Virus record (IMG/VR): IMGVR_UViG_3300037782_000033
Location: 1 to 25,467 of that record
DNA length: 25,467 nt
Source of the DNA: a virus
Lineage: Duplodnaviria; Caudoviricetes
Direction: 5' to 3' (one strand)
The notes under the pieces: generated by a model
Told to the model about the DNA's origin: nothing
Databases searched by the model: none
The model's input: only the letters and a program-made list of their open reading frames with translations
Shown here: one piece after another, positions 458 to 23,076 of the stretch
Layout: every line of letters starts with the position of its first letter
Numbering within the stretch: position 1 is the first letter of the stretch
Position numbers and translations under genes: made by a program

Positions 458-461
458 TAAA

Positions 462-983: not shown

Positions 984-1004
984 TATTTAGAATTATTCTA
1001 AATA
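984..1004. promoter_or_regulatory. Fur/PerR-family-like operator TATTTAGAATTATTCTAAATA
   Basis: Perfect 10-1-10 inverted repeat ending 6 bp before the -7 element of the portal operon; near-identical copy at 16846-16866. Confidence 0.75.
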
Positions 1005-1010
1005 ATTTTT

Positions 1011-1018
1011 TATATTTG
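1011..1018 (+). promoter_or_regulatory. Bacteroidota primary-sigma -7 element (TATATTTG) for the head-tail operon
   Basis: Matches TAnnTTTG, 42 nt upstream of the portal ATG. Confidence 0.65.
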
Positions 1019-1060
1019 TCCTAGAGTGCCTTTGAGTGCCATTTAAAACTAACACGTTAG

Positions 1061-2455
1061 ATGGCTAATTGGCTCAAAAGAAATTACGACAAACTTGTAT
1101 TAAGAACGGTAGATAAAAGCTCAATCACCGTTTCACCTTCCGCACAACAAGCCCTAAACCTTATACCACCTTCAATATTCCTAACTAAAGGTACACCAAC
1201 TTGGCAAAATCTATCTGAACTTATTTACCTACTAGACTGCTACTACTCTAACCCAGTAGTTAATGCCATTGTAAACATAAAGGCAGAAGCATTCGCAAAC
1301 ATGCGCTTTAAGGTAAAGGATTTAAAGACCGAAGAAATCATTCCGCTAAAACAGTACGATGCAGATGGTGGCAAGTTAAGACAGTTACTAAGCAAACCAA
1401 ACCCACTTCAAACAGGATCCGAATGGTTAAGACAGCTCAAGGTTAATTACGAGGTGTTCGGTAATGGTTACGTGTATGGAATGATTCCGATAGGATGGGA
1501 AAACCGTTTTACTTACGAAGATATCGAAGTGCTTAACAACCTACCACCCTATTGTATAAGTCCAGTACTCACAGGTAACTGGCTTACAGCTACTAAAAAA
1601 GAGGAAATTATAAGCAAGTACGTTCTAAAGAACTTCAACAACATCAATAAGGATTTGCACCCAAATACTGTGATGCATTTCAATAACGTCAACATTCGCT
1701 TTGATAGTGATTTCACGCAAGGCAAATCAGACTTATTAGCACTTACTAAACCTATAACCAACATTACAAAAGCCTTTGAAGCTCGTAATGTACTTATAGA
1801 ACGTAGAGGGCCTCAAGGTGCATGGACATCTGATCTAAAAGATGATGTTATGGGTTCAATTCCTATGGATGATGAACAAATAACATCAGTACAAAAAGCC
1901 TTTGCAAAGTACGGATTAATGGACGACCAGTATTCTCAGATAATTAGTCCAATGCCTTTAAAGTTCCAAAAAACAGGCTTTAGCACTAAGGATTTAATGT
2001 TGTTTGAAGAAGTTGAAAGCGATGCTATAGCAATCGCAGTATCTAAAGGTGTGCCTGAATTGTTAGTGAAGTACTACGTACAAGGTGGAACGTTCGAAAA
2101 CCTTAACGCATCAGAAAAGCGACTTTACGATTCCACAATCATTCCTGAAACAGATGATTTTATGCAGAATTTCAACAGTTTCTTTAATACTGAAAGTCTA
2201 GGAATAGAACTATTGGGCACATACGACCATCTCAACATCCTACAAGCCAACAAAAAAGAAGAAGCCGAAACCACAGAAAAGCACTCACAAACTGCTGAAC
2301 GTGCTTTTAGAAGTGGTGCAATTAATTACAACGATTATTTAACAGCTATAGGATTACCACATAACGATACTATTGGTGAACTGCATATCTGGGATTTAAC
2401 ACCAGAACAGCTAAACGCTATTAACATAAAAACCGAAATCGCTAAAAATGAATAG
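1061..2455 (+). CDS. Phage portal protein (HK97-like family)
   Basis: YYSNPVVNAIVNIKAEAFA, LLSKPNPLQTGSEW, VFGNGYVY, IAVSKGVPELL and TFEN motifs; 464 aa; first gene of the head module. Confidence 0.93.
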   Translation: MANWLKRNYDKLVLRTVDKSSITVSPSAQQALNLIPPSIFLTKGTPTWQNLSELIYLLDCYYSNPVVNAIVNIKAEAFANMRFKVKDLKTEEIIPLKQYDADGGKLRQLLSKPNPLQTGSEWLRQLKVNYEVFGNGYVYGMIPIGWENRFTYEDIEVLNNLPPYCISPVLTGNWLTATKKEEIISKYVLKNFNNINKDLHPNTVMHFNNVNIRFDSDFTQGKSDLLALTKPITNITKAFEARNVLIERRGPQGAWTSDLKDDVMGSIPMDDEQITSVQKAFAKYGLMDDQYSQIISPMPLKFQKTGFSTKDLMLFEEVESDAIAIAVSKGVPELLVKYYVQGGTFENLNASEKRLYDSTIIPETDDFMQNFNSFFNTESLGIELLGTYDHLNILQANKKEEAETTEKHSQTAERAFRSGAINYNDYLTAIGLPHNDTIGELHIWDLTPEQLNAINIKTEIAKNE

Positions 2456-2582
2456 TAAAATCATAGGACATACAGGAAATATTCAAATAACCACATGCCC
2501 AATCACAGGTTACAAATATTCATTTCAACCCTTTTACAGAAAGTTAACAAGAAGCGAGAAACGAAAACTTAAAACCGAATAA
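2448..2582 (+). CDS. 44-aa hypothetical protein (MNSKIIGHTGNIQITTCPITGYKYSFQPFYRKLTRSEKRKLKTE)
   Basis: Translated by hand; overlaps the portal stop by 8 nt and ends 1 nt before the next ATG. Confidence 0.5.
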   Translation: MNSKIIGHTGNIQITTCPITGYKYSFQPFYRKLTRSEKRKLKTE

Positions 2583-2583
2583 C

Positions 2584-2712
2584 ATGGAAGCGAAAATCGA
2601 AAAACTAAAAGATTTAAGACGTAAGGCTGAAAAAAACGGTGACGAAAGGTTAAAAGAATCACTAGATAACAAGATAAAAGCATTGTCTAACTCTAAAACC
2701 GTGACAAAATGA
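2584..2712 (+). CDS. 42-aa basic helical head-module protein (MEAKIEKLKDLRRKAEKNGDERLKESLDNKIKALSNSKTVTK)
   Basis: Translated by hand; ATGA overlap with the protease start suggests translational coupling. Confidence 0.7.
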   Translation: MEAKIEKLKDLRRKAEKNGDERLKESLDNKIKALSNSKTVTK

Positions 2713-3515
2713 ATTATACCATAAAACAATATCCAGGCAAAAAGTTCACGGATAAGATGGACCAGACAAGGTTTATCAAAAAACATCTTGAGGAACTAAG
2801 AGAAATCAAGAAGGCTGAGTACAAAACCAACTCACAGCCTATAATTCAAGGTTTAAAAACTAAAGAATTTACACCAATGATTGAGGATATAACATCAGAT
2901 TTCATCGAAGTAAAGTCTGTTATCAATACCACTAATATTATTGATAGCCATTTAGACCTACACATGCCAAAGATTTGGAATAAAACCGTAAAGGACAATC
3001 CATATAGTCATCATTTAAAGCAACACGAGAACAAGTTCGAGAGCGTCATCTCCAAAAAAGCTAAGAGTTACAACGAGAACTCAAACTTTAACCAATTAGG
3101 TCTCGATGTTGACTTTAAAACGGTGGCTAATATCAATCAATTTGTTTTAGAGCGTTCAAAAATACCGTTCATGTTCGATGCCTATAAAAACGGTGACGTA
3201 GACCAACATTCCGTTGGGATGCTTTACGTCGATTTAGACATCGCTTACTACGATGAGGACAGCCAAAAGCAGATGGATTTCTTTAACGAAATGAAATCAA
3301 AATGTGTTAATCCTGATGTAGCTGACGAGTACGGTTACTTCTGGGTTATATACGAAGCTAAGAAACGCGAGGGAAGCGCAGTTGTGTTTGGCAGCAACAG
3401 CGTTACACCTACCCTTTGGGTGAAAAACTATGAGCCGCAAAACAGCACTCAGAAAGAAGCCGCGAGAGCACTTCAAGCCAAACGAAATTTAATTATTAAT
3501 CATTTAAACAACTAA
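2709..3515 (+). CDS. Prohead maturation protease (HK97-type)
   Basis: Lies between portal and capsid; NTTNIIDSHLD, HLKQH, QHSVGM and EGSAVVFGSN..TP correspond to the His/Ser/Glu motifs of phage prohead proteases. Confidence 0.85.
   Translation: MNYTIKQYPGKKFTDKMDQTRFIKKHLEELREIKKAEYKTNSQPIIQGLKTKEFTPMIEDITSDFIEVKSVINTTNIIDSHLDLHMPKIWNKTVKDNPYSHHLKQHENKFESVISKKAKSYNENSNFNQLGLDVDFKTVANINQFVLERSKIPFMFDAYKNGDVDQHSVGMLYVDLDIAYYDEDSQKQMDFFNEMKSKCVNPDVADEYGYFWVIYEAKKREGSAVVFGSNSVTPTLWVKNYEPQNSTQKEAARALQAKRNLIINHLNN
3431..3474 (+). repeat. Tandem pair of same-shape RNA hairpins at the protease 3' end, upstream of the capsid gene
   Basis: UGAG-CC-GC-(AAAACA)-GC-A-CUCA and GAAG-CC-GC-(GAGA)-GC-A-CUUC. 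Confidence 0.55.
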
Positions 3516-3517
3516 AA

Positions 3518-5218
3518 ATGAAAAACATTTTTAAGAACAAAACAGTATTGTTTTTATGCCTGCTTTTTGCGGTGGCATTAACATTTGCATTATTAGACCC
3601 ACTAGCTGGTGGTGCTATGAGTATCGCTTCCTTAGTTCCAATTTGGGGAAGTATTAAAGAAGGAACTTTTAAAGAATTATCGGTAGATGAAATCGCTAAA
3701 CTTTCAGATGAAGAACAAGCGCAATATTTCGCTGATAAGGCTGAGTATCAAAAAGAAGAAATCAAAAAAGAATTATCTGTATTGGTTTCTAAAGCAAAAG
3801 CAGACTTGATATCTAAATCTGATTTTGACAAAGAATTTGATGCTATTAAAGGTAAACTAAAGGACATTGATGTTGATAAATTTAACAAATTTGAACAAGC
3901 CTTAGAAAAGTATCAAGAAATTGTAAAAACTCAAGGCATCGAATTAGCTAAATTAAAAGACAGTGGTATTCCTACTTCTGCTAAAAATGCTTTTAAAGAA
4001 GAACTTAAGAAAGCTCTTGATAGTGAAGAATACAAGGAATTTGTAGAGTCTAACGGAAAAAAGAAAGCATCTTTTAGTTTAAAAGCAGTATCTATTTCAG
4101 ATGATTATACAGGTAATAGTCTTGTACATATCACTTCAAGAGATTCAAGAGTAGTTGACCGTCCAGAAGTAACACGTTTAAACGTAAGAGATTTATTAAC
4201 TGTAATACCAACAGACTTACCTTATTTAGCTTTTACTGAGGTTTATGATTGGGATAGAAACACAGGAACAATATCAGAGAATGGCTCATTAGCAGAATCA
4301 ACATTCAAAGTTAGAGAAGCTACTGTAGATGCTAAACGTATTGGTACGCATATACCGTTATCAAAAAGAATGTTGCGTTCAGCTTCATTTGTAATGGGTC
4401 ATATCATGCAGAAATTACCTGCAATGGTAAGATACCAAGAGGATTTTCAATTATTACATGGTGATGGTGCTGGTGACAATGTTTTAGGTGTAAACAAAAA
4501 AGCACAAGATTTTACAACATTAATAAACACCTCTATTACGGGATCTGCTGGTGCTGTAGCATCTGTAGAAACTTATGATGGTGGTGCAAAAGCATTAATC
4601 ACATTTGCTGCTAATCAAAATCTAAATAATGGTGACACTATTACTATTGCTAATGCAACAGAAGCTAGTTACAATGCTTCTCATTCTGCTATTGTAAAGA
4701 GCCCTACTCAAATAGTTATCGAATTAGCTTATGTGGCTGAAGCAGACACTTCTGCATGGACATTTACTGTAAACAGTCCGTTTAAAGATTCAATCGAAGC
4801 TGCTCAAGAAATCGATGTACTAAAAGTTGCTAAAACTTTAGTTACAGTTCAAGAGTACATGGCTACAGGTATTGTTTTAAACCCTGTTGATGCTACTAAA
4901 ATTGAAACTTTAAAAGGCAGTGATGAACATTATATTGATGTTCAAAGACTAGAAAATGGCGTATTAACAATTGGTGGTATTCCAGTTGTTGAGACTACTG
5001 CTATGCCTGCTGGTAAATTTATCGTTGGTGATTGGGTTTTAGCTGCTGCATTAGCGCAGTTCTCAGAATTAACTTTAGAATTTTCTGAAAGCACTCAAGA
5101 AAAACTTAAGAATATGGTTGAGGCTATTATTCAAGAGGAAGTGTTATTCCCAATCTATAACCCTTACATGTTCGTAACAGGTGACTTTACGACTGCTAAG
5201 GCTGCAATAGGTGTATAA
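3518..5218 (+). CDS. Major capsid protein, HK97 fold, with N-terminal hydrophobic plus coiled-coil scaffold region and an internal beta-rich insertion
   Basis: VRDLL, SENGSLAESTFK, KRIGTHIPLSKRML, EDFQLLHGDG, IVLNPVD..I..LK, IGGIPVVET..MPAGKFIVGD and KNMV motifs. Confidence 0.93.
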   Translation: MKNIFKNKTVLFLCLLFAVALTFALLDPLAGGAMSIASLVPIWGSIKEGTFKELSVDEIAKLSDEEQAQYFADKAEYQKEEIKKELSVLVSKAKADLISKSDFDKEFDAIKGKLKDIDVDKFNKFEQALEKYQEIVKTQGIELAKLKDSGIPTSAKNAFKEELKKALDSEEYKEFVESNGKKKASFSLKAVSISDDYTGNSLVHITSRDSRVVDRPEVTRLNVRDLLTVIPTDLPYLAFTEVYDWDRNTGTISENGSLAESTFKVREATVDAKRIGTHIPLSKRMLRSASFVMGHIMQKLPAMVRYQEDFQLLHGDGAGDNVLGVNKKAQDFTTLINTSITGSAGAVASVETYDGGAKALITFAANQNLNNGDTITIANATEASYNASHSAIVKSPTQIVIELAYVAEADTSAWTFTVNSPFKDSIEAAQEIDVLKVAKTLVTVQEYMATGIVLNPVDATKIETLKGSDEHYIDVQRLENGVLTIGGIPVVETTAMPAGKFIVGDWVLAAALAQFSELTLEFSESTQEKLKNMVEAIIQEEVLFPIYNPYMFVTGDFTTAKAAIGV

Positions 5219-5430
5219 TGGGTAGGTTAATTTTTGAAGGTGACGATAAGGTTTTATCAACAATCTCAAAATCTAACCGATTAAGAGTTAAAAAGTATGG
5301 CCTTAAAGTCACTTTAGAATCAAAGGATAGTAAAGTTACTATTCCATCAAATAAGGAAAACTCAAAAGAGTCTAAACCTAAGAGAGCCAAAACAAGCAAA
5401 AAAGCTGGTGACGACAAAAAAGCCAAATAA
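5218..5430 (+). CDS. Small Lys-rich head-associated protein
   Basis: TAATG coupling to the capsid gene; 70 aa, very basic C-terminus. Confidence 0.7.
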   Translation: MGRLIFEGDDKVLSTISKSNRLRVKKYGLKVTLESKDSKVTIPSNKENSKESKPKRAKTSKKAGDDKKAK

Positions 5431-5439
5431 GGCATAACA

Positions 5440-6078
5440 ATGATTACAACTAGAGATTACTTTATACTCAATACCGAACTGCCATTTGTTTCAGATGACG
5501 TTCCCAACGCTTCATTGGTTGGGAACATATCTGAAGCGGATAGTGCCATACAACGCTATGAAAAGGATATACTTCAAAAAACTTTAGGGTATAGTCTTTA
5601 CAAAGCCTTTATGGATCAGTTTGATTATGATGCTCAAACCATAAGACACACCATAAAAGGCAGTGCAGACCAGAAATGGAAAGACCTACTAAACGGTGTA
5701 GCATACGTTAAAAACGGTGTTAACGTGGTTTGGCAAGGTATCATCTTTACCGACGAAACTGTAAAACGCAGTTTTATTACTAATTACGTTTACTGCGAAT
5801 GGCTAAAAAAGGAAACAAGCAAACACTTAGGTGTGGGCTTAAGCAATCCACAAGCCAAAGGTGCAACAAAAGCAAGTCCAACATACAAGTTTACAGAAGC
5901 CTATAATGATTTTGTAGATGTTGTTGTAGGTAACTTTTGTAACGGTTACAGTGACGAACTCGGTACAGGTGTACGTAGTCTTTATGAATTTATAAACGAT
6001 AAGAACGAAGAAAGCCCTAATACGTATCCTAATTGGATGCCAAAGGACTTTAAAAAGGTTAACGTCTTTAGTATATGA
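5440..6078 (+). CDS. Putative head-tail adaptor/connector
   Basis: Position after capsid; 212 aa, largely helical; function from synteny only. Confidence 0.6.
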   Translation: MITTRDYFILNTELPFVSDDVPNASLVGNISEADSAIQRYEKDILQKTLGYSLYKAFMDQFDYDAQTIRHTIKGSADQKWKDLLNGVAYVKNGVNVVWQGIIFTDETVKRSFITNYVYCEWLKKETSKHLGVGLSNPQAKGATKASPTYKFTEAYNDFVDVVVGNFCNGYSDELGTGVRSLYEFINDKNEESPNTYPNWMPKDFKKVNVFSI

Positions 6079-6578
6079 TACAGTTAGAAAACAGATTTAT
6101 TGAGGTTTTTGATACCGTACCAAACATAGATTTTATGGATGCTTCCCTAAAGTCTAAGTATGATTTCGGAACAGAAGCCGATTGTATTCGTTTTATGACC
6201 GTAAACTCTAAAGGAAAAGACAAATACCCTTTGATTTGGTTAGAAACACCTATCAATCTTAAAGGAAAAGAGCCTTTGTTCAAAACACGTTTAAAATTCA
6301 TTTTAGCCTATCCAACACAGGCAAACATGGAAAATAGGCAACGTTTAGAAACCTATTTTAAAGAGGTGTTAGATGTAATGTTCGATTATGTGATTACAGC
6401 ATTACAGCAATGCGGATTTGTTCGGTTTATTAACCAGGAACAAAACACATTTGCAAGACATTACAATTACACCAACGTAGCAGAAGATAAATCCAAATTG
6501 GATATATGGGATGCTATTGTGTTCGGTAGAGATGTAGAGATAAACTCAAGTTGTAGTACAAAAACAATTAATTATTAA
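6075..6578 (+). CDS. Putative tail terminator/completion protein
   Basis: ATGA-coupled; KYPLIWLE motif; immediately precedes the tail tube gene. Confidence 0.55.
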   Translation: MIQLENRFIEVFDTVPNIDFMDASLKSKYDFGTEADCIRFMTVNSKGKDKYPLIWLETPINLKGKEPLFKTRLKFILAYPTQANMENRQRLETYFKEVLDVMFDYVITALQQCGFVRFINQEQNTFARHYNYTNVAEDKSKLDIWDAIVFGRDVEINSSCSTKTINY

Positions 6579-6590
6579 AAATCACATACG

Positions 6591-7469
6591 ATGATAAACG
6601 ATAAATGCGGTACTACAAGTGCCAAAAAGCTAACAGGTGCTGATAAGCAGTGCCTTACCAAACCAACGGTTGCTTACGCCTTGGCTAAAGAAAGTCAGTC
6701 GTTTGCCGATGCTGCAGCATTTAGAAGCAAAACCGCTTGGGATACTGCAAAAGAAGCTAAGGATATCGTAGTTATGTACAGCGTTGATAAGTCAGAACTT
6801 GCCAATGTTGAGCCTACTTACTACGAAGGTAGAATTAGCAGAATTGAAACTAAAGAAGCGCGTAAAGGTTTACGTGTAACTCACCTTTTAGGCTATTGTT
6901 CTCATGGTGCTCTAAAAACCTATGAAGAAAGCGAATATACTCGTGTATATGAGTTTACAGAAGATGGACAGATTAAGGGTGTAGAGCAATCTGACGGTAC
7001 AATAAAAGGGCAAGAGTTAAGCAACTTCTTAGTAGGTATCGTTAACGAACCAGTAATCGAGGGCGATCCTCAAAACTGTGTTGTAGAGTTTGTTTATGCA
7101 GACCCTAACGAGCTGTCAAACAACGGTGCGGTAGTTACACCAGACTTTAACGTGTTAAAGTACAAAGGTATCTATCCAGCAACGTTAACGGTTGTGGGTA
7201 CACCATCAGCTACATCTTTAGTCGTTAGAGCAACTTACGGTTGTGACAACAAGCCTTTAACAGGTTTGGATATTGACGATTTCAAAGTGTTATTAGCTAA
7301 TGGAAACGCTCAAACACCAGATAGTGTTAGTGAAGGTTCTGGTGATGATGCCAACCTTTACACATTTGTAGATACAGACTTAGCGACTGGTACTATTGCA
7401 ACCAACGTTGTAGTACAGACCTTAGCGATGTTTGAAACCGAAGCAGCAGTATCATTCACAGTTAGTTAA
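6591..7469 (+). CDS. Major tail tube protein, probably with C-terminal Ig-like domain
   Basis: Position, size (292 aa) and Thr/Val-rich beta C-terminus; no sheath gene, so the tail is non-contractile. Confidence 0.7.
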   Translation: MINDKCGTTSAKKLTGADKQCLTKPTVAYALAKESQSFADAAAFRSKTAWDTAKEAKDIVVMYSVDKSELANVEPTYYEGRISRIETKEARKGLRVTHLLGYCSHGALKTYEESEYTRVYEFTEDGQIKGVEQSDGTIKGQELSNFLVGIVNEPVIEGDPQNCVVEFVYADPNELSNNGAVVTPDFNVLKYKGIYPATLTVVGTPSATSLVVRATYGCDNKPLTGLDIDDFKVLLANGNAQTPDSVSEGSGDDANLYTFVDTDLATGTIATNVVVQTLAMFETEAAVSFTVS

Positions 7470-7471
7470 TC

Positions 7472-7708
7472 ATGGGAAAAGTATATAAAAATGTGTCTTT
7501 CAACGAAAATTACAGTCCTAAATGGGATGAATTCAAAAAGTCACATTCACATATCATCCCATTAGACGAACTCGAAGAAGCATACAAAGCTTTAACAGGT
7601 AAAGATATTACAAAGAAACAGAAAATCGCATTACAAAAAGAAATCAATGGCAACACTTCAACAGCAACTTCAGAGAGTTCAGAAGCTAACGCCAACGCAT
7701 CTGAGTAG
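7472..7708 (+). CDS. Hypothetical phage protein
   Basis: Starts 2 nt after the tail tube stop; its low-complexity tail overlaps the next gene by 62 nt. Confidence 0.65.
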   Translation: MGKVYKNVSFNENYSPKWDEFKKSHSHIIPLDELEEAYKALTGKDITKKQKIALQKEINGNTSTATSESSEANANASE

Positions 7709-8123
7709 TGTACTGTTTCAATATCTAAAATCCATTGAAGATGAAATGGCGGAACTCAACCGTCAACAGATATTCAAAGAAAGTGAGGATATATTCGGAC
7801 AGCCTTTGGGTGAGTACTCAGAGGCTACCGAATACATCACAACAAATGAGGCTCTTTTAGGCAAAGGAACGATTATAAAGCGTGAAGGTGAGCCTTACGA
7901 TTTTAAACAAACAGGTGTCTTTTTACCGTCCATTTTTGCAAGGGTAGTTAACAATCAAGTCTTATTTGGCAGTACAGACCCAAAGCTCGATGAGATTTTT
8001 GACAATGTAAGATTAAAGAGCAAAGCATTCTTTGGACTTCAAGACGTCAACAAAGTATTTATAATACAGCAAAGGCTTCTACCCTATTTACAGAATTACA
8101 TCCGAAAGGAACTAAAGCTATGA
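7647..8123 (+). CDS. Putative virion morphogenesis/tail completion protein
   Basis: LNRQQI...D.FG..L.EYS.AT, TGVF and FFGL pattern; position in the tail module. Confidence 0.55.
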   Translation: MATLQQQLQRVQKLTPTHLSSVLFQYLKSIEDEMAELNRQQIFKESEDIFGQPLGEYSEATEYITTNEALLGKGTIIKREGEPYDFKQTGVFLPSIFARVVNNQVLFGSTDPKLDEIFDNVRLKSKAFFGLQDVNKVFIIQQRLLPYLQNYIRKELKL

Positions 8124-8701: not shown

Positions 8702-11700
8702 TGGCAGAAGGGAATATCACCAGAAAAGATTTAATAACCGACGAAGGTATAAGTTGGGGTTCTGAGTATGCCAAAAACCTTCAGATTGCCATAGATAAGA
8801 ATGAAGAGCTTGTAAAGTCCTCAAAACAATTATTTGACCTATACAAGCAATTACAAGGTGTTACAAATAACAAGCAACTTATCACTATTCAAAACAAGCA
8901 AATACAGATTACCCAAACTGCCACAAAAGCATACGAAGATCAAGGCAAAGCATTAGCCAAAGTAGATGAAGAACGTCAAAAGTCTTTATCTAGTTTATTG
9001 CGTACCACTAACAAATTACAGAACGTTAACACTACGACTAATAAACAAAATATTGAAGCCAGAGAAACATTAAGACTTCAAAATTTAGAGATTAAAAGAA
9101 ACCTAACGTTTATGGGTCGTTTGACAAATGAGCGTGATAAGGCTCGTAAATCCGTTCAGGAACTACAGGCTAAGTTAGCACTTGGGAAAAAACTAAGTGA
9201 CCAAGAGCAAAAAGAATTAAGGGAATCTACCAAACTATTTGAAGAATATAATAAGAAAGTCCAAGCGATTAAAAAAAGTACAGGACAATTTCAAGAGAAC
9301 GTCGGTAATTATCCTAAGTTTTTTAGTGGTGCAATAAAATCAATAAAAACATTTTTACCATTAATAGGTGCAGGATTTGGACTGCGTGAAGCCTTTAATT
9401 TTGCAAAAGAAGCTAGACAATTAGCCATTGAAGCCAAAGGTGTTGAGTTTGCATTTGATAGATTAGGCGATACTGGTGTTGATGCCTTTGAACGTGTTAA
9501 AGCATCCACTAGAGGATTGCTTTCTGATTTAGACATTAAAAAATCTATAGTTGAGTTTGATAACTTCAACCTTGATTTAGAAGAAATGGACACCTTATTA
9601 GAGTTTGTTTCTGTACGTGCAGCTCAAACAGGTAAATCATTTGAGCATTTAAGGGATTCGCTTGTAGAGGGTCTATCCAAAGAATCCAAGCTGAGAATAG
9701 ATAACCTTGGTATATCTGCAACTGAATTAAATGCAGAACTTGAAAAAACACCAGACTTTGTTCAAGCAGTTGCAAACATAGCTAAAAAAGAAGTTGCAGA
9801 AGCAGGAAGTGTTTTAGATGATGCTGGTAACTCTCAACAAAAATTTAATGCAGCATATCAGAATTTTCAGTTAGCAATAGGTAAAGGATTAGTTGCTAAA
9901 GCTAGTGATGCTATGTACGATTTAGGTCGTAATATTTTAGATGTCATCACACCTACCAAAACTTTAGTTACTGAAATTGAAAAAGAGCAAACCGAACTTA
10001 ACTTATTAGTTAATAAAATAACTGACGTTAACACATCTAACGAAGAACGTGAACGATTAATAGGAAATTTAAAAACGCAATACCCAGCATTTCTTCAGTT
10101 TCTTAATGATGAAAAAACAGATAACGAAAGTTTATCTACAGCACTTGCAGAAGTTAACCAACTTTATATTAAAAGAATTGCATTACAACAACAGCAAGAA
10201 ACCATTGAAGAACTTTTAAATAAGTCAGGTAAAGAAGCTTTTAGACAAGCTAAAGCACAAGTTGAAGTAGACAAAGAACTAATTAGAATCAATAATACCG
10301 TTTTAAAAGGGTCTATTGACTTAACTAATAAATCCTACCAAGAACGTATAGATGCAGTAACTGAAGCATTAGAAGTAAACGCAAGGTTTAGCGAGAGCCA
10401 ACGTACAGGTGTTAGAACTGCCTTAAATAGTGAAGCAAAAGCCTTACAGTCTTTAAATAGTGATATAGGTAAAACCATTTCTACCAAGATAAGACAAAAT
10501 AGAGTTAATAAAGAATTGACTGAACAACAGGATTTAATGTTGAGACTAGAAGAAAACATGGGTACAACATTAGAAGAAATCAATGCTTTGTTTGCAGCAA
10601 ATACCGCAGCTAAAAATAAAAATGCAGATGCTACAGGACTATTAACAGATAAAGAACAAAAAGCCTTAGAGCAAAGAAAAAAGCAACTAGAACAGGATGC
10701 TTTCAATCTAGACAAACAACGTCTACAATCTCAAGCAGATGCACAAAAACGTATTTTAGATAGTGATAGCGAAACTACTTCAAAGCGTTTAGCAGCAGTT
10801 GTAAATTATACCGATAAATCCATTCTGTTATTACAATTAGAACGTGACCGCGCGATAAAACTAGCCAAAGGCAGAACGGATGAAATAAAGCGTATAGAAC
10901 TGGCTTATTCCGATGACTTTGATGCGTTGATACGTGAGCGTGAAGATAACGTTCAAGGCATTCTCCAAGATAGTTTTGAAAAGACCAAAGCCAGAATTGA
11001 AGCCGAAAACCAATTACAGCAAGATGCAACTAATGAACGTATCAATGAGGCTCAAGCAAAGTTAAGACAAGATTTAGAAACGCTTAACGGTCCAGCACGT
11101 TTAGCACGCATACAAGCCTATGAAGATGAAGTTACCCAAATAGAACGTAACGCAGCCGAAGAACGTCTAAAGAATCAAATTTCGGTAATAGAAAAAGAAT
11201 TGGCAAATCCAATGCTAGATCCTGAGCAACGCATCGCATTAGAACAAATGCTTGCAGATGCTAAGATTGCGTTAAGTGACGAACAGACAGATAATGCCAT
11301 AGCCAACGCAGAACGACAAGCCGAAGCCGAACAGCGATTGTTCGATATGAAACAACAGCTTATCGCTCAATCCTCTCAAAGTATTGCAGACAGTCTAGGA
11401 TTAGACGCCCGTAATATTGAAAGTTTACTTACATCTTTTCTACAAAAATCAGAAAAAACAGGTGATGCAATTATCGACAAATACAATGAGGTTTCAAGAA
11501 CAATATCTCAAATAGGCTCTGTGGGTGCGGTAGTTGGTGATGTGCTAAGTGCAGTATCCGAAGCTAACATAATGCGTATAGACGAGGAAATACAAGCCAA
11601 CGAAGAGTTCTATGAACGACAATTAGAGTTGGCTGGTGACGACGTAAGCCAACGCGAAGCATTAGAGCAAGAAAGAGAATTAAAACGAAAAGAACTTGAG

Positions 11701-12291
11701 AAAAAAAGACGTAAAGAAGAAGAGAAACAAGCCAAACTAGATAAGCTTATGTCTGTTTTTCAAATAGGCATTCAAACAGCTATAGGTGTATCTAAAGCTG
11801 TGGCAGCATCACCTTTAACAGGTGGTTTGCCGTGGTCTGCTATAGTCGCTGGTTTAGGTGCTATTCAAATCGCAGCAGTTTTAGCTAAGCCAATCCCAAA
11901 ATACCGTTACGGTACAGAAGATCACGTAGGTGGATTAGCTGAAGTTGCGGAAGTTAGACCAGAGGTCATCATGGAACCAGGTAAAAAGCCATACATCCAA
12001 AAAACGAGAGCGACCTTAAACCTTGCACCACATACTAAGGTAATTCCAAGTGTAGAGGAATTCTCAAACCAAATGATTGCAGCATCCATTATGACGAGCC
12101 TAGCGCATGATAAACATAACCTCAATCATTATGAGACTTTATTGGCATTTGAAAAATACTCAGATGAAATGGTAGGCGAACTAAAAGAAAATACCAGAGC
12201 TATAAAACGATTGAAGTTGGGTGTCAACATTCAGAATCAAAAATACGATATACCATATCAATTATTCCGTTCTCAAAACATTAAATGGTAA
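8701..12291 (+). CDS. Tail tape measure protein
   Basis: 1196 aa, coiled-coil rich; FQENVGNYP motif, hydrophobic segments, C-terminal AIQIAAVLAKPIPKY..GT...GGLAEVAE. Confidence 0.92.
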   Translation: MAEGNITRKDLITDEGISWGSEYAKNLQIAIDKNEELVKSSKQLFDLYKQLQGVTNNKQLITIQNKQIQITQTATKAYEDQGKALAKVDEERQKSLSSLLRTTNKLQNVNTTTNKQNIEARETLRLQNLEIKRNLTFMGRLTNERDKARKSVQELQAKLALGKKLSDQEQKELRESTKLFEEYNKKVQAIKKSTGQFQENVGNYPKFFSGAIKSIKTFLPLIGAGFGLREAFNFAKEARQLAIEAKGVEFAFDRLGDTGVDAFERVKASTRGLLSDLDIKKSIVEFDNFNLDLEEMDTLLEFVSVRAAQTGKSFEHLRDSLVEGLSKESKLRIDNLGISATELNAELEKTPDFVQAVANIAKKEVAEAGSVLDDAGNSQQKFNAAYQNFQLAIGKGLVAKASDAMYDLGRNILDVITPTKTLVTEIEKEQTELNLLVNKITDVNTSNEERERLIGNLKTQYPAFLQFLNDEKTDNESLSTALAEVNQLYIKRIALQQQQETIEELLNKSGKEAFRQAKAQVEVDKELIRINNTVLKGSIDLTNKSYQERIDAVTEALEVNARFSESQRTGVRTALNSEAKALQSLNSDIGKTISTKIRQNRVNKELTEQQDLMLRLEENMGTTLEEINALFAANTAAKNKNADATGLLTDKEQKALEQRKKQLEQDAFNLDKQRLQSQADAQKRILDSDSETTSKRLAAVVNYTDKSILLLQLERDRAIKLAKGRTDEIKRIELAYSDDFDALIREREDNVQGILQDSFEKTKARIEAENQLQQDATNERINEAQAKLRQDLETLNGPARLARIQAYEDEVTQIERNAAEERLKNQISVIEKELANPMLDPEQRIALEQMLADAKIALSDEQTDNAIANAERQAEAEQRLFDMKQQLIAQSSQSIADSLGLDARNIESLLTSFLQKSEKTGDAIIDKYNEVSRTISQIGSVGAVVGDVLSAVSEANIMRIDEEIQANEEFYERQLELAGDDVSQREALEQERELKRKELEKKRRKEEEKQAKLDKLMSVFQIGIQTAIGVSKAVAASPLTGGLPWSAIVAGLGAIQIAAVLAKPIPKYRYGTEDHVGGLAEVAEVRPEVIMEPGKKPYIQKTRATLNLAPHTKVIPSVEEFSNQMIAASIMTSLAHDKHNLNHYETLLAFEKYSDEMVGELKENTRAIKRLKLGVNIQNQKYDIPYQLFRSQNIKW

Positions 12292-14576
12292 TGATAGATA
12301 CAGCTTATATAGATAGAGTTTATTACGAGCTACAAAACAGCAATGTAGGTAATCTACCAGTGCCATCAGATGATATTATAGGCTGGAATGAGGACGACAA
12401 AGAATATGCACGCAATGATGATTACGAGGGTATATTCGCTAAGTTTTCAAACGCATTGAGATTTAAAGGTGCAGCCAAAGACTGGATAAATAATGCCATA
12501 TATCAATTAGACATCAACGCTAAGTTACGATTGGTAAAAAACGCACTAGACAATCAAATGCAATGGCAACGTTCTTATGAAGGTTTTTTATCTGTTCGTA
12601 CATGGGAATATAAAGACAACGTAGTGTCAATGAAGTTTGAATCTGGCGGTTTAGAAAACACACTAAAAACAAGACGCAAGGACAAAGTAGAACTTGAGCG
12701 CACCGAAACATTTACAGGTAAGGCTATACCAGAATTGGAACTAAAACAGCTCAACTTACCAGGTAGACGTATATTTTTAAATACCACATTTAAGACCGAT
12801 AATGTTAATAACGAAGCCAAAGCTACTGTACAATCAAATGATGGTGATGAAGTGCATAAAACAGTGGGTATTCCTTTACAGATATTGGGTTCTTCACATG
12901 ATTTATCCAATAGTGTAATAATGAACACTACGGGTAACGAGTTTGGTGGTAGTACAGGTATGATGTTTTATGCCTTGAACGACAGAACACGTTTAATGGA
13001 CATCAATTTGGATTTTGATTTTGATGCTTATTTTCAACAATACGAGAATGTGCAATGGTGCAGATATCAAGTGTGCTTAACAATATATGAGAATGGTGCT
13101 AATTATGATATTAAAGAACGAAGAGTTATTTACGAATTACGTTCATCAGGTGAAGGTGTAACAAGTAATCTTGTAAATGGTGGAACATCATTAAATAATT
13201 TACCCTCAAATCACGATTTTGCTTATCCGTCTTTTACCATTCCAATTGCAGGAAGTTATAATACTCAAATAGAATTATTAGAGGGTGAAAGCCTAGCATT
13301 AGAATGTTATCTAAATGCAGATTTATATGTAGACAATAACGCTGGTGTAAGATGCTTTGCTCAAAACATCGTTTCAAATTTAAAGATTGAAGAAGACAGT
13401 TATTACGAGCCAACACTTACGAATGGCATATTAGCCTATGAACTCTTAGAGCGTTTGGTAGAAATAATGACAGGCGACAAAAGCAACTTCAAGTCCGATT
13501 ATTACGGTAGGGTCGATAGAGGTTATCCGGTAGATGGCCCAGGGGCTTATACGTTTTTTGCACATGGCCATTGGATAAGACAGTTTACATCTGAAGACGA
13601 ACTCTACAAGCCCTTTGCAACGTCATTCTTGGATGCGTTTGAGAGCTTAGAAGTATTGCACAACGTAGGTTTGGGAATTGAGCGCATAGGATTTAAGGAA
13701 CGTATCATCGTTGAGGATTCTAAATACTTCAACAATAACAACGTCACCATAAGATTAGGCAAAGAGGTTAACGGTGTTTTTGAATATCTACAGGTTAAAA
13801 ATGTAGAACGCAAAGTTGCAGAAGATTATTACTACTCATCCATTACCATAGGCTCTGATAAAGGTGGCGACTATGAAGAAATAATGGGATTACAGGAAAC
13901 CAACACCCAAGCTAATTTCACAACCATAATTGAAGGTGCTACCAACGAGTACAAAAAAACAGCTAAGTACAGATGGGATCCGTATGGTGAAGAAATCATA
14001 AGACGACGTAACAAGATTACAGCACCAACAACAGACCAAAGTGGCGACTTGGATATTTGGGCTCATGATGTAAAACCTAGTGCAACTGGGATATTTGAGT
14101 TAAAGACTTGGCAGGATGTTTTAGAAGTTGAGCCAATTGGAATGTTCGACCCAGACAGCTCGTATAATTTCCTGTGGTCACCAGTACAGTTATTGTTAAA
14201 ACACGGTTACAAGTTAAGAGCAGGATTAAACAAATACCCTTTAGATTCAATAATATTCGGAAGCTCAACAGGAAAAAGCCAAGTTACCATACAAGCCATA
14301 GGGCAACCAGCCTATGCCGAAAACGGAAACGTACCAAACATAGATTTAGAACCAGCAAGAGACGTACCAAGAGAAGTTAAGTTTGAATTTAAGGTCGATA
14401 GGGAACTTATTAAAAAAATAGAGGGTTACACCATTCTACCAAACGGACAAAAGATACCCAACATCTACGGAAAAATAGAGTTTATGAATGAGTTTGGTGA
14501 ACTCGAAAAAGGAAAAATAATAAGTCTAAAGCCAAACGGAAAAGGACAATTCACATTAATACAAAGCGCGATATGA
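12285..14576 (+). CDS. Tail-tip/hub structural protein
   Basis: 763 aa directly after the tape measure (the true start may be ATG 12291); function from synteny. Confidence 0.65.
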   Translation: MVMIDTAYIDRVYYELQNSNVGNLPVPSDDIIGWNEDDKEYARNDDYEGIFAKFSNALRFKGAAKDWINNAIYQLDINAKLRLVKNALDNQMQWQRSYEGFLSVRTWEYKDNVVSMKFESGGLENTLKTRRKDKVELERTETFTGKAIPELELKQLNLPGRRIFLNTTFKTDNVNNEAKATVQSNDGDEVHKTVGIPLQILGSSHDLSNSVIMNTTGNEFGGSTGMMFYALNDRTRLMDINLDFDFDAYFQQYENVQWCRYQVCLTIYENGANYDIKERRVIYELRSSGEGVTSNLVNGGTSLNNLPSNHDFAYPSFTIPIAGSYNTQIELLEGESLALECYLNADLYVDNNAGVRCFAQNIVSNLKIEEDSYYEPTLTNGILAYELLERLVEIMTGDKSNFKSDYYGRVDRGYPVDGPGAYTFFAHGHWIRQFTSEDELYKPFATSFLDAFESLEVLHNVGLGIERIGFKERIIVEDSKYFNNNNVTIRLGKEVNGVFEYLQVKNVERKVAEDYYYSSITIGSDKGGDYEEIMGLQETNTQANFTTIIEGATNEYKKTAKYRWDPYGEEIIRRRNKITAPTTDQSGDLDIWAHDVKPSATGIFELKTWQDVLEVEPIGMFDPDSSYNFLWSPVQLLLKHGYKLRAGLNKYPLDSIIFGSSTGKSQVTIQAIGQPAYAENGNVPNIDLEPARDVPREVKFEFKVDRELIKKIEGYTILPNGQKIPNIYGKIEFMNEFGELEKGKIISLKPNGKGQFTLIQSAI

Positions 14577-16639
14577 GTTTTTCTAAGATAACATTAACAT
14601 TCAATGCCGATTTAGATTTAAAAGAGCGTATAGGATTTACAGCGTCCTTAAATTCCGTAAGCGTTTATGAGAATTGGGAAACACAAAGAACACAATCCAA
14701 TCAAGTTACGCAAGGAACACCTACAGGAATTGTCGGCGAAAGGTCGGCAATTAACTTTGTGGTAGCTTTTAATCTCGATTATAATAGCACCAACTTATAC
14801 GAAATTACAAGAACAGATAATGTCGTAGTCATAGAATCTAAAGTTGCCAACAACGACTTCTCAGGATTTTATAATTACGATGATTATACTACTGGGCCAC
14901 CTTACGGATTAAGCGGAAGTGTTACTGCGGTCATTGAAAACTTTACAGGTGATATTCTAACGATAGACGACGTTGAATTGTTGGAATCTGAATTTTTAAG
15001 CAATAGCCCATGTACGCATTATAGAGTGGCCATAACTACAAGTATATTGGTGACTGAATTCTATTTACAAGATGACCCAGATACAACTTATGTAAACATC
15101 GCAAACCCTTTAATTTTTGAACGTCCTAGAGGTGTCGGATTTAAGGTGATCTGTGAAAGTGCGGACGGTCAAATAGTAGATACACGAAAATTTAACTTTG
15201 AAGTTCCAGCACTTTTAACAAGCGCGAACATTTCGGTAAGTTCTACGAGTTCACCAAATGGTGGAACGGCCATAATCACGGTTTCAAACTTAGCCGAAAA
15301 TGGAACTATTGAGTATTCTTTGAACGATACGGACTGGCAAACATCAAATGTATTTTCAGGATTAGAAAATGGCAACTACACCGTTTACGTTCGTGATGGT
15401 TTTGGATGTTCGGCTAGTCTTGATTTTGTTATGGATGCTAATAACATTACCAATCCATACAGTTATATAAGTAAAAGCAACTCAATACGATTTGCAGTCG
15501 TTGAAGACTTTGCGCCTTGTGGTGCGTCACAAAATGATGAAAACACATTGAGCTATCAAGCCTTTGCACGCAACCAAAGATTGGCATACAGAGAACATCA
15601 ATGTTGGAACAGTTGCGATACCATTACAAGTCAATTGTGGTCTAACTATGAAAATATAGAAATTAAGATACTCAAAGAAGATGGTACTGAAGATACCGTT
15701 ACACCTTTGCAGTTAACTGAATTTATAGGCATCAAGGATGCCAGAGATGCTATAAGCTACGATTTAGGTGATGGTAAAACAGGAATTTATTTTACGTCTG
15801 GGAATATCTATGATTACGATACTGATGTAGATAGTGGAACGGACTACCTTTTAAACGGTGGTTTGCCAGAATGGGGCGTTATTGGAAACTACGTAAATAT
15901 AGGTGCTGCATGGTTTCAGATTGAGAATGTCATTTTTGATGAAGATTTACAAGCTGAAGTCTTGGTAATTAGTTCGGTATATTCTGGTGGTGCAACGACT
16001 AATATTATCACAAAATCTATTTTCAACCGTCAAGAGTTCAATGTATTTGAGTTTACGATTGCTATGTCGGCTTATAATAACTCATGTTTTCAAGTTCAAA
16101 TTACTGAAACCGATGATAGATTTCCTACAAAAGTTCGCTTATCGGAATTTCAGAACGTTAAGACCGAACAAAAGAACACCATAGAAATGATAAGCTACGG
16201 CATAGATAACACCGATGTGTTCTTTGCTAGTGGTATTCAGCATAAAGTAAGATTGCCGATTGTAAATATAGAAGGTGATTATGACCAAGAAAGCGAGGTT
16301 AACAAAGGTGACACATCCAGCGGTTTAGTGTCAGGCTCATTGCATGAAACAAATCTGTTTATCATTGGGCCAGTGACCAAGGAAATCTACAGAATGATTG
16401 TAGAACAAGCGAGTAATGAGGTGGTGATAATTAATGGTGTGTATTACATAAAAAATGGTGAAATACAGAAAGAAGGGCCTTTAGAAGAAAGTAATCTTTA
16501 TGAAGTCCGTTTACCAATGTTGAAATCAAGAGGCAGAGCTTATATCAATAGAGATGAACAACTAATAGCAACAAATGAAAGCTTAGAAGTGCCTAATCTT
16601 GTGATTGATGGTGATGGGAACTTTGTTTCTTATCAGTAA
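14573..16639 (+). CDS. Tail structural protein containing a SprB-like Ig repeat
   Basis: ATGA-coupled; segment EYSLNDTDWQTSNVFSGLENGNYTVYVRDGFGC resembles SprB-type repeats. Confidence 0.65.
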   Translation: MSFSKITLTFNADLDLKERIGFTASLNSVSVYENWETQRTQSNQVTQGTPTGIVGERSAINFVVAFNLDYNSTNLYEITRTDNVVVIESKVANNDFSGFYNYDDYTTGPPYGLSGSVTAVIENFTGDILTIDDVELLESEFLSNSPCTHYRVAITTSILVTEFYLQDDPDTTYVNIANPLIFERPRGVGFKVICESADGQIVDTRKFNFEVPALLTSANISVSSTSSPNGGTAIITVSNLAENGTIEYSLNDTDWQTSNVFSGLENGNYTVYVRDGFGCSASLDFVMDANNITNPYSYISKSNSIRFAVVEDFAPCGASQNDENTLSYQAFARNQRLAYREHQCWNSCDTITSQLWSNYENIEIKILKEDGTEDTVTPLQLTEFIGIKDARDAISYDLGDGKTGIYFTSGNIYDYDTDVDSGTDYLLNGGLPEWGVIGNYVNIGAAWFQIENVIFDEDLQAEVLVISSVYSGGATTNIITKSIFNRQEFNVFEFTIAMSAYNNSCFQVQITETDDRFPTKVRLSEFQNVKTEQKNTIEMISYGIDNTDVFFASGIQHKVRLPIVNIEGDYDQESEVNKGDTSSGLVSGSLHETNLFIIGPVTKEIYRMIVEQASNEVVIINGVYYIKNGEIQKEGPLEESNLYEVRLPMLKSRGRAYINRDEQLIATNESLEVPNLVIDGDGNFVSYQ

Positions 16640-16799
16640 GAGATTTAAAAGTATCCTTATCGATGTGTAGATGGTTATGAGTTTCGTGGGTATGGTTAAT
16701 AAAGGTGATGGTTTCTTTTTTATCATCAGGAATAAAGGAAGCAATGAGCTTACCGATAAGGTAGCCACCACCAACAAAAAGAATGAATATTAAAACCAT
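16593..16799 (-). CDS. 68-aa single-TM, His-rich moron protein
   Basis: Hydrophobic N-terminus MVLIFILFVGGGYLIGKLIA, then NHTHETHNHLHID; own -7 element TACCTTTG 4 nt upstream of the ATG. Confidence 0.7.
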   Translation of the reverse strand: MVLIFILFVGGGYLIGKLIASFIPDDKKETITFINHTHETHNHLHIDKDTFKSLTDKKQSSHHHQSQD

Positions 16800-16803
16800 T
16801 TAC

Positions 16804-16811
16804 CAAAGGTA
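16804..16811 (-). promoter_or_regulatory. -7 element TACCTTTG for the His-rich moron (probably leaderless)
   Basis: Minus strand reads TACCTTTG-GTAA-ATG. Confidence 0.55.
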
Positions 16812-16845
16812 ATGGATAAAGTTAAAAAAATTTATGTTAGATTAT

Positions 16846-16866
16846 TATTTAGAATGATTCTAAATA
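16846..16866. promoter_or_regulatory. Second Fur/PerR-family-like operator TATTTAGAATGATTCTAAATA
   Basis: Perfect 10-1-10 inverted repeat, identical to 984-1004 except the central base; lies between divergent promoters. Confidence 0.75.
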
Positions 16867-16879
16867 GTTGAATTTTAAT

Positions 16880-16887
16880 TATATTTG
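16880..16887 (+). promoter_or_regulatory. -7 element TATATTTG for the tail-fibre/lysis operon (probably leaderless first gene)
   Basis: TATATTTG-AAC-ATG; same octamer as at 1011-1018. Confidence 0.6.
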
Positions 16888-17880: not shown

Positions 17881-17884
17881 TATT

Positions 17885-20785: not shown

Positions 20786-20789
20786 AATT

Positions 20790-21751: not shown

Positions 21752-21756
21752 GAGAT

Positions 21757-21990: not shown

Positions 21991-22050
21991 AAACATCTTG
22001 CTATTAAGTCACGGTCTTTGTGGGATTAGACCAACTTAAAAATTTTAATT

Positions 22051-22611: not shown

Positions 22612-22614
22612 GCC

Positions 22615-23049: not shown

Positions 23050-23076
23050 TTTACTTTTTACGCAAAAACTAAAATA

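Follow-up and report, generated by a model that had tools for sequence, protein, structure and literature searches.

Candidate host Fur operators at the virion and lysis promoters of a Forsetiviridae-like prophage

Two identical palindromes that match the Fur box of Flavobacteriales precede the late operons of what appears from its sequence to be a Forsetiviridae-like prophage of marine-type Flavobacteria. We propose, with a probability of about 0.6, that host Fur represses these operons and that low iron or titration of Fur, together with a Com-like protein, releases them, so that late expression would behave as an AND gate. The proposal builds on the sequence identity of the boxes, their conservation among phages, their host regulon context, their spacing class, and a Com motif that co-occurs with Com-like genes; from these we infer that Fur binds and represses, that titration or low iron lifts the repression, and that Com acts. 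Host metal repressors are known to act on prophage cargo genes; structural and lysis operons under the direct control of a host iron sensor would, if the sequence-based prediction holds, be new, and no report of Fur boxes at phage structural promoters was found in a literature search that left most subscription journals outside. If real, this wiring would couple phage yield to iron among bacteria that dominate the decay of marine blooms, a setting in which growth is often iron-limited, and would explain how a phage can drive its late genes from constitutive host promoters.

The window, meaning the whole stretch of 25,467 nucleotides that was analysed, contains the following features.

299..851, plus strand: 52-aa ORF and GNAT acetyltransferase
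984..1004: candidate Fur box 1 (19-bp core 985-1003), spanning the expected -33 region of the portal promoter
1011..1018, plus strand: -7 element TATATTTG of sigma-A type serving the portal operon; transcription is predicted to start at ~1023
1023..1042, plus strand: Com-type bipartite RNA motif at the start of the portal leader: two GAGnnCC heptamers separated by 3 nt
1031..1078, plus strand: predicted hairpin in which the portal start codon pairs with the second heptamer (P 1.00 for the AUG; z -1.8)
1061..2455, plus strand: portal, first gene of the head-tail operon
1061-16639, plus strand: head-tail operon (portal, probable protease, HK97 capsid, tail, tape measure and structural genes)
16593..16799, minus strand: 68-aa ORF, His-rich and membrane-anchored, transcribed divergently from box 2
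16804..16811, minus strand: -7 element TACCTTTG of the divergent 68-aa ORF, 35 nt from the end of box 2 and 4 nt before the ATG
16846..16866: candidate Fur box 2 (19-bp core 16847-16865)
16880..16887, plus strand: sigma-A -7 element TATATTTG of the second late block, 3 nt 5' of the ATG at 16891
16891..23722, plus strand: second late block, with putative genes for fibre or receptor binding, one of them encoding an SGNH domain
22615-23049: endolysin in the second late block (phrog_894)
24070..25227, minus strand: tyrosine integrase
25341..25426, minus strand: complete tRNA-Ser(TGA) with its own TATATTTG

The original prediction had placed two copies of one palindrome in intergenic DNA upstream of the same -7 element, and both observations were verified: TATTTAGAATnATTCTAAATA occurs at 984-1004 and 16846-16866, with gaps to TATATTTG of 6 and 13 bp counted from the 21-mer, or 7 and 14 counted from the 19-mer. 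These are the only two sites in the window within three mismatches of TATTTAGAATnATTCTAAATA, against 0.01 expected from 100 dinucleotide shuffles, and they form its longest two perfect inverted repeats (10-bp arms). As had also been predicted, the late genes are served by promoters of the host housekeeping, sigma-A type; in F. psychrophilum, TAnnTTTG is located at -12 to -5. The mRNA of the second late block is predicted to be leaderless, like those of host feoA promoters, and box 2 faces the divergent 68-aa ORF in addition to this plus-strand block, a neighbour that the original prediction had passed over. Elsewhere in the window TATATTTG is found at 22572, within a gene, and at 25445 on the minus strand, ahead of tRNA-Ser; a scan for sigma-70 promoters and terminators gave chance-level output, and none of 23 listed runs was an RNA data set holding the sequence.

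The operon heads were recovered in part: the first box does head a portal-to-tail operon and the second block does contain an endolysin, but the label "fibre" for its leading gene found no database match. The product of 16891-17880 matched nothing in Pfam (above cut-off), PHROG, NCBIfam or Atlas (best 0.77), and its name derives from where it lies and from weak similarity (E 0.008) to a protein that itself matches a tail-fibre PHROG; the holin-like and spanin-like ORFs of the block were likewise named by position. The element appears to be integrated, because the tRNA-Ser(TGA) is the probable host side of its attachment site. At the other end, the GNAT acetyltransferase is cut at ~830 with ~50 C-terminal residues missing, and phage homology starts only from 969; the segment 299-968 had no match in the phage collection and 801-975 had none among the phage loci compared. 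No terminase, replication or Com genes lie within the window, nor is the left arm of the element seen in it; the probable source contig stops at position 1.

The 19-bp core is identical to the published Riemerella Fur-box consensus, with 0 mismatches at either site, which bears out the resemblance that the original prediction had raised. In Riemerella, Fur shifts DNA fragments from promoters with such boxes (PMC5609570, where the E. coli-type consensus of the abstract differs from that of the results), binding to such fragments is Mn-dependent (PMC10986502), deletion of one Fur box derepresses rhuH (PMC11967795), and feoAB is Fur-repressed (PMC10434265). The Riemerella anatipestifer regulon resembles the present case in its consensus, its -7/-33 type promoters and the spacings of feoA and other uptake genes (PMC5609570, PMC10986502, PMC11967795, PMC10434265); it differs in that here perfect candidate boxes head phage virion and lysis operons, and in a different host family.

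The motif also marks the iron regulon of hosts, and so is not confined to the prophage, as the scan of host genomes proposed earlier was expected to reveal. Sites with one mismatch occur in 39 of 61 genomes of the family of a relative's host (reversed control, 5/61), and 21 of the 30 fetched lie beside iron, haem or Fe-S genes; perfect sites occur in 34 of 301 genomes of the class Bacteroidia (reversed control, 0/301), with 20 of the 29 fetched in such surroundings. Neighbouring genes were assigned by running Pfam on non-redundant subsets of the fetched sites. The 61 family genomes hold just one perfect site, and it is inside a prophage. All of the 41 genomes of this family that were examined for regulators carry one conserved Fur, and 15 have no further Fur-family gene, 11 of which contain 1-mismatch boxes.

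A peroxide gate had been offered as part of the original prediction, as had a domesticated, GTA-like particle; in the former, PerR or another Fur-family paralogue would read the box. The 7-1-7 geometry is common to Per boxes, and 26 of the 41 family genomes have additional Fur-family genes, but the box is found in genomes with a single Fur, and none of the 106 genome sites fetched had a catalase, ahpC or dps gene as its nearest neighbour, a result that concerns the surroundings of boxes. Because the box at these sites flanks iron genes and never these peroxide genes, we take the reader to be Fur and dropped PerR on regulon content. Domestication would suit a window that has no terminase or replication genes and a cut GNAT gene at its left junction; against it, the integrase and tRNA attachment site remain, the portal family occurs in 1 of 401 genomes of the family of a relative's host, unlike a GTA, and intact phages, including the plaque-forming Freyavirus phages, share the layout. 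It is not needed, since the cultured Polaribacter phages Danklef and Freya carry the box before the portal, and it was also abandoned; we regard the peroxide gate or GTA-like element as highly improbable.

Conservation upstream of homologous portals, the other expectation raised at the outset, was found in most close relatives. Of 22 non-redundant relatives (portal identity 48-90%), 14 have a box with 0-2 mismatches ahead of the portal, six are boxless, and another two have only a 3-mismatch site; for these counts, 5 of 33 loci with <100 bp upstream were omitted from one set, 26 of 32 loci were examined in a second (two without upstream DNA), and five duplicate phage loci were merged. The DNA just upstream of the conserved boxes is unrelated between relatives. 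Among TAnnTTTG sites in eight phage loci, 7 of 100 have a box at 0-1 mismatch and 91 of 100 are at five or more. Box 2 is retained in G062, G001, Danklef and Freya, the last two of which have three boxes each, and an estimated ~650 IMG/VR stretches carry the pattern, compared with 4 for its reverse. Distant portals (25-45% identity) yielded a 2-mismatch box in 1 of 30 rows (L257). The complete relative G702 keeps the -7 element, and its genome holds no box even when 3 mismatches are allowed, a pattern consistent with a repressor site that the phage can do without.

Perfect sites are thus rare in the hosts and the rule in these phages, and multicopy titration of Fur is established practice (FURTA), both of which would suit boxes that act mainly as a Fur sponge, where replicating DNA titrates Fur to derepress host iron uptake and receptors and the late promoters simply offer free intergenic space. 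However, each phage genome has only two or three boxes, each 3-16 nt from the -7 element heading a structural block, and no free-standing or tandem boxes were found in these phages, so we consider a sponge very unlikely. Scarcely better odds are given to a phage-encoded reader, either a Fur paralogue or an HTH protein of the left arm, with host Fur incidental. All 17 Freyavirus records have a Fur-family gene just before the small terminase, whose product is 28% identical to host Fur over 107 aa, partly keeps the recognition helix and has lost the HDH metal motif; moreover, the left arm of our element is not seen in the window, and an HTH ORF near terS is common to four close relatives. Yet this paralogue was seen only in Freyavirus and one metagenomic cluster, a search of the window's closest relatives found none, and G062, G063, G064 and the 45-kb prophage contig G001 carry boxes with no Fur gene. 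The boxes also conform to the host consensus and are found in numerous phages that are unrelated.

With host Fur as the favoured reader, the spacing between box and promoter bears on whether it represses or activates. Among host sites, 30 of the 57 fetched have gaps of 3-8, and these head feoA/feoB (8), ECF sigma factors (6), DUF6686-like genes (10) and a TonB receptor; at gaps of 13-16 there are ten non-phage sites, among them those of feoA, of a gene for a siderophore-interacting protein and of one for a PepSY membrane protein. Several genes in these short-gap classes have no assigned function. None of the host sites in either class heads a cytochrome or Sdh gene, and the multihaem cytochrome c genes (12/12) and sdhC have gaps of 44-57. 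The window's gaps of 7 and 14 compare with host feoA at 3 and 14 and ECF sigma genes at 5-7. Repression of both late promoters is the best reading of these sequences, because host genes at the same gaps are uptake genes (e.g., feoA), which are Fur-repressed in Riemerella, and the proposal of a repressing host metalloregulator is strengthened accordingly by the spacing.

Iron-loaded Fur could instead act as a late activator on a fixed helix face beside RNA polymerase, giving particles in iron-replete cells. Phage gaps fall into classes at -5, 13-16, 34-35, 44-46 and 55-56 and show 10-bp phasing (R 0.57, 71 sites, p<=0.0003), in phase with the host cytochrome c and sdhC sites; a gap of 14 shares the phase of the putative activation positions 35, 45 and 55, and simple occlusion needs no such phase. 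The phage promoters also lack a clear TTTG at -33, and activation would account for plaques on rich medium. We nevertheless judge it unlikely: the host genes at gaps of 3-8 and 13-16 are uptake genes and none is iron-consuming, the gaps of orthologous portal promoters range from 6 to 16, a complete relative (G702) does without the box, and activation of host cytochrome genes by Fur is itself inferred. The spacing analysis does predict that Fur may activate respiratory genes in Bacteroidota.

A second input to the head operon is suggested by the portal leader. The motif at 1023..1042, whose heptamer pair spans 1024-1040, is the sole strict match in the window and agrees exactly with the SELEX consensus of Mu Com, NGAGNNCC(N2-3)GAGNNCCNN (PMC6483171). 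The start-codon hairpin is predicted in the window and in 6 of 11 other motif-bearing leaders (P>=0.97); a consensus fold of 11 Com-motif leaders gave no pairs, and in a weak control native leaders folded at -14.9 versus -13.1 kcal/mol for swapped ones, the native being best in only 2 of 10. All ten relatives with a Com-like ORF have the motif, and of the nine loci that lack the motif and extend at least 2.5 kb further upstream, eight have no such ORF and the ninth (L006) has a Cys-rich ORF of another pattern. These genes are encoded near the terminase in relatives; of eight ORFs scanned, all match phrog_6417, six match phrog_13819 gpCom, and one exceeds the Pfam Com (PF10122) cut-off. Given this Com site in the leader, iron starvation should not by itself suffice for particle production. 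The suggestion that iron licenses particle building gains from the spacing typical of repressed uptake genes, but a phage-coded input to late expression probably remains.

In the repression model, iron-loaded host Fur would occupy both palindromes across the -33 regions and silence the head-tail and fibre-lysis operons, so that neither virion nor lysis genes would be expressed in the lysogen or in the first part of an infection; the locks would be tight, because the boxes are perfect, a form less common than the host's own sites. The locks would open once iron-bound Fur became limiting, mainly as phage replication multiplied the boxes, and earlier and more strongly in an iron-short cell. The head operon would need a second, phage-made key, a Mu Com-like zinc finger that binds the GAGnnCC pair and frees the hairpin-occluded portal start codon, so that host iron state and a phage protein would be required together. 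Danklef and Freya were obtained by enrichment as lytic phages (PMC8776804), so any such lock must open in ordinary culture. Both phages are cultured and their hosts deposited (DSM 111047, DSM 111048), which makes the idea directly testable.

Several known systems share parts of this arrangement. Danklef and Freya (Freyavirus, Forsetiviridae) have a portal 66% identical to ours, the gene order portal-capsid-tail-TMP (PMC8776804), boxes before the portal and fibre genes, and a His-rich divergent ORF; they differ in a third box, the Fur paralogue, the lack of a Com motif and low DNA identity (66% over the portal), and the supplement of their description mentions the paralogue without the boxes (PMC8776804). 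Of the core set that marks Forsetiviridae, namely portal, capsid, TMP and five structural proteins, the comparison with the window covered portal identity and gene order. Com-mom translational activation in phage Mu uses the same exact bipartite GAGnnCC and a small CxxC-CxxC protein like that of our relatives (PF10122; PMC6483171), and its start-codon hairpin has a predicted counterpart in the portal leader, but its target is a DNA-modification gene and not the portal gene, and the Com-like gene is non-adjacent in relatives and absent from the window. In Stx1 phages of E. coli, a host Fur box lies inside the prophage late region (P-stx1, Fur-repressed) and governs a cargo gene beside a Q-dependent late promoter (PMC5552940), whereas in the window the boxes stand directly before the structural operons, and they are found repeatedly within a phage family. 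In Yersinia ruckeri, a fur mutant shows raised expression of the genes for structure and lysis of one prophage; the authors leave a direct or SOS route open, and the accessible portion of the paper names no late-promoter box (PMC13607417).

A broader scheme is possible, if doubtful: host Fur would widely serve the phages of Bacteroidota as a two-way stage switch, its direction depending on where the operator lies. Near-promoter boxes (gap 3-16) would silence virion and lysis operons, and upstream, helically phased boxes (gap 34-57) would activate early or lysogeny genes, so that the box at 16846 might close the fibre-lysis operon and open the divergent membrane gene; iron starvation, genome copy number and a Com-like RNA key would release the lock, and the metal-blind Freyavirus paralogue might do so as an anti-Fur. 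If true, the virion output of bloom-associated flavobacteria would be wired directly to ocean iron. Among viral contigs, the His-rich ORF has one clear relative only, its remaining homologues coming from box loci, and homologues adjoin boxes in six other phage loci.

Two identical 21-bp palindromes had been noted at the head of the virion operons, and a search of the window allowing up to three mismatches confirmed them at 984-1004 (box 1, ahead of the portal) and 16846-16866 (box 2, ahead of the fibre-lysis block), with no further copy in the window at that threshold against an expectation of 0.01 in shuffles. The accompanying -7 elements were also found, TATATTTG being located 6 bp behind the palindrome at box 1 and 13 bp behind it at box 2. 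Gap lengths quoted here count the nucleotides between the 19-bp core and the first base of TAnnTTTG, which yields 7 and 14 for the window. In Flavobacterium psychrophilum the sigma-A element has the form TAnnTTTG and occupies -12 to -5 (PMC9723704, excerpt); by this placement, transcription of the portal operon is predicted to start at ~1023 and that of the second block around its ATG near 16891, without a leader.

The core of box 1 (985-1003) has the exact letters of the Fur-box consensus predicted for Riemerella in the results section of PMC5609570 (excerpt), which bears out the likeness suggested earlier; the abstract of that paper gives an E. coli-type consensus instead. Riemerella Fur shifted four promoter fragments (PMC5609570, excerpt), binding at the rhuB promoter requires Mn(II) (PMC10986502, excerpt), and rhuH was derepressed once its box was removed (PMC11967795, excerpt). 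Within a family sample centred on the host of a relative, one-mismatch sites occurred in 39 of 61 genomes versus 5 for the reversed pattern, and the sole perfect site belonged to a prophage. Iron, haem or Fe-S genes adjoined 21 of the 30 one-mismatch sites fetched, namely hemA (9), TonB receptors (4), multihaem cytochrome c (3), and, at the remaining flanks, sufA, mrp, nrfH, ferredoxin and phenylalanine hydroxylase. The near-perfect site seen most often in this sample (9/30) is conserved and separates hemA from an AraC-family gene that points the other way:

L175, L176, L178, L181, L182, L185, L200, L203, L204: host loci with the hemA/AraC-family box

Across the class, 40 perfect sites were present in 34 of 301 genomes (control, 0), and 20 of the 29 fetched adjoined iron genes, TonB receptors being counted by class in this tally. 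A scan of the host clade had been expected to find the motif before TonB receptor, haem, ferritin or catalase genes; the first two were indeed flanked, and neither catalase nor ahpC nor dps was the nearest neighbour of any host site fetched. One conserved Fur was encoded in 41 of 41 family genomes, 15 of which had no other Fur-family member, and boxes were present in 11 of those 15. Because of the iron-gene neighbours, the lack of peroxide genes beside the sites and the boxes in single-Fur genomes, the binder is most likely Fur, and the PerR or peroxide-operator reading was set aside. Binding of the window boxes by host Fur is likely, with a probability we put at roughly 0.87.

Host targets separated by gap class. 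Gaps of 44-57 preceded multihaem cytochrome c genes (12/12), which we take to be ActA-like, and sdhC, with boxes 44-46 or 55-57 nt ahead of the -7 element, two positions that differ by one helical turn:

L164, L180, L183, L197, L218, L219, L223, L225, L226, L228, L230, L232, L233: host loci with cytochrome c or sdhC boxes

This position is typical of activators, from which we infer activation of these genes by Fur, and the spacing predicts Fur activation of respiratory genes across Bacteroidia. At uptake and Suf genes, boxes overlapped or followed the -7 element or stood at gap 26-27, some of the latter with a second site as well. In 351 genomes of the order, a targeted scan located 57 sites with a gap of 3-8 and another 12 with a gap of 13-16. 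Thirty of the former were fetched and preceded feoA/feoB (8, 7 by Pfam), ECF sigma factors (6, 3 scanned), DUF6686-like genes (10; 1 of 3 scanned matched), a TonB receptor, DUF4856, two ankyrin proteins and two unknowns. The 12 at gap 13-16 comprised two prophage genes, feoA, a siderophore-interacting protein, a PepSY membrane protein, two genes without a Pfam match, DUF4920, CotH, a T9SS cargo protein and two sites without a near ORF; cytochrome or Sdh genes were absent from both fetched sets. In a Riemerella fur mutant, feoAB rose 4-5 fold (PMC10434265, excerpt). Since host genes at these gaps include feoA and no cytochrome or Sdh gene, the phage boxes, with gaps of 3-16, belong to the repressed spacing class. 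G702, a complete relative, has no box anywhere at up to three mismatches, and the site is therefore dispensable, which also speaks against the rival reading that Fur activates the late promoters. That reading remains a rival because gaps are phased at 10 bp in viruses (R 0.57, p<=0.0003, 71 de-duplicated sites) and in hosts (R 0.41, p<=0.015, 35 sites), gap 14 sharing its phase with 35, 45 and 55. Given binding, repression by Fur is nevertheless the likely direction, and the lock would be released through copy number together with low iron. In unrelated Bacteroidota-type phages (L007-L129), gaps of 34-35, 44-46 and 55-56 stood mostly ahead of small unknown ORFs, and gaps of 13-16 ahead of portal, fibre-like and phrog_5824 genes.

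On the minus strand, box 2 lies 35 nt from the -7 element of a divergent ORF:

16593-16799, minus strand: His-rich 68-aa ORF, single-helix membrane protein, antisense in the late region

Its homologues adjoin boxes in the prophage contig G001, in L061, L083, L105 and L108, and at Danklef gene 13, which occupies a different position than in the window; gaps were 34-35 or 20 at loci with an exact element. Fur at box 2 may act as a repressor for one direction and as an activator for the opposite one. The ORF itself could encode an exclusion or metal-binding protein.

Conservation upstream of homologous portals, proposed as a check, was observed: among 22 non-redundant relatives (portal identity 48-90%), a box at 0-2 mismatches preceded the portal promoter in 14, a 3-mismatch site in two and none in six. 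Presence was patchy inside the clade on the portal tree, and among more distant portals one of 30 rows had a 2-mismatch site. Box 2 was retained in G001 and in another relative, G062. In IMG/VR the perfect core occurs in an estimated ~650 stretches versus 4 for the reversed pattern, preceding portal, terminase and fibre-like genes, and early genes too. The cultured Polaribacter phages Danklef_5 and Freya_10 carry three boxes each, and all 17 Freyavirus records encode a Fur-family protein of 142 aa immediately before terS:

Danklef_5 and Freya_10: boxes at the portal, at the gene preceding the tape measure and at the gene following the tail-hub block
L130:45797-46225 (Danklef5_76) and L131:8179-8607: Fur paralogue gene, identical across 17 records

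The paralogue has 28% identity to a host Fur, lacks the HDH metal motif and was not found in the other box-bearing relatives examined. It shows a second, independent tie of the phage family to Fur, and it is a candidate anti-Fur or competitor. The isolation paper mentions the gene in its supplement (PMC8776804), and its main text does not contain "iron" or "ferric".

Two GAGTGCC heptamers, 3 nt apart, open the portal leader (1024-1040) and form the window's only strict match to the SELEX consensus of a Mu-type Com protein (PMC6483171, excerpt). In a hairpin predicted within 1023-1078, the second heptamer would pair over the start codon, a fold resembling the mom inhibition hairpin of Mu; comparison of motif-bearing leaders demonstrated no covariation. 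The motif was present in all 10 relatives that encode a Com-like CxxC-CxxC ORF. Of nine motif-less loci for which 2.5 kb or more of upstream DNA was available, eight had no such ORF and the ninth had a different Cys pattern; four relatives had the motif yet no Com-like ORF within the 0.2-3 kb seen. The Com-like ORFs matched a PHROG translational regulator (8/8) and gpCom (6/8), one only passing the Pfam cut-off. Box and motif occurred in all four presence/absence combinations. Because of the motif and the predicted hairpin, low-iron derepression in the window lineage would probably yield portal mRNA but not portal protein without a phage factor, a Com-like protein being the predicted second key.

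Other links to host repressors include LexA on coliphage 186 and GIL01, DtxR on tox, and Fur titration assays. The closest known systems include the Riemerella Fur regulon, whose consensus is identical to the window core, P-stx1 of Stx1 phages (PMC5552940, excerpt), prophage expression in a Yersinia ruckeri fur mutant, its mechanism left open by the authors (PMC13607417, excerpt), and, for the leader motif, Mu Com-mom; a passage in PMC7976709 (excerpt) also concerns Fur repression. The window adds a test of direction based on spacing, a test system available in culture, a Com layer on a box-bearing promoter and the Fur paralogue.

The window, a virus record in its own right, encodes the portal, an HK97-type capsid, tail and tape-measure proteins and other structural proteins, together with an endolysin and an integrase, and it includes a full tRNA-Ser that has a promoter. 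It therefore represents the right-hand portion of an integrated prophage; it has no terminase or replication genes. Its portal is 81% identical to that of a prophage within a Winogradskyella MAG and 66% to those of Danklef and Freya (Forsetiviridae). Homology to relatives begins at 969, where a 99% identical phage (run X3) diverges into sequence like L001, a locus with terminase genes at the corresponding place. Left of 969 lie a small ORF and a GNAT gene, the latter truncated at ~830, and the probable source contig terminates at position 1; a deleted left arm, or an insertion plus a contig break, are both possible.

299-851: 52-aa ORF and GNAT acetyltransferase missing ~50 C-terminal residues
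17855-20785: putative receptor-binding protein, 976 aa, with a C-terminal SGNH/GDSL domain, one of two models being under the Pfam cut-off

The former resembles a toxin-antitoxin-type pair that was disrupted at the junction of a deletion or an insertion, and the latter region is exchanged among relatives. In G001, the integrase is reduced to a 56-aa C-terminal remnant (L170:10709-10876, minus strand) between lysis and early genes.
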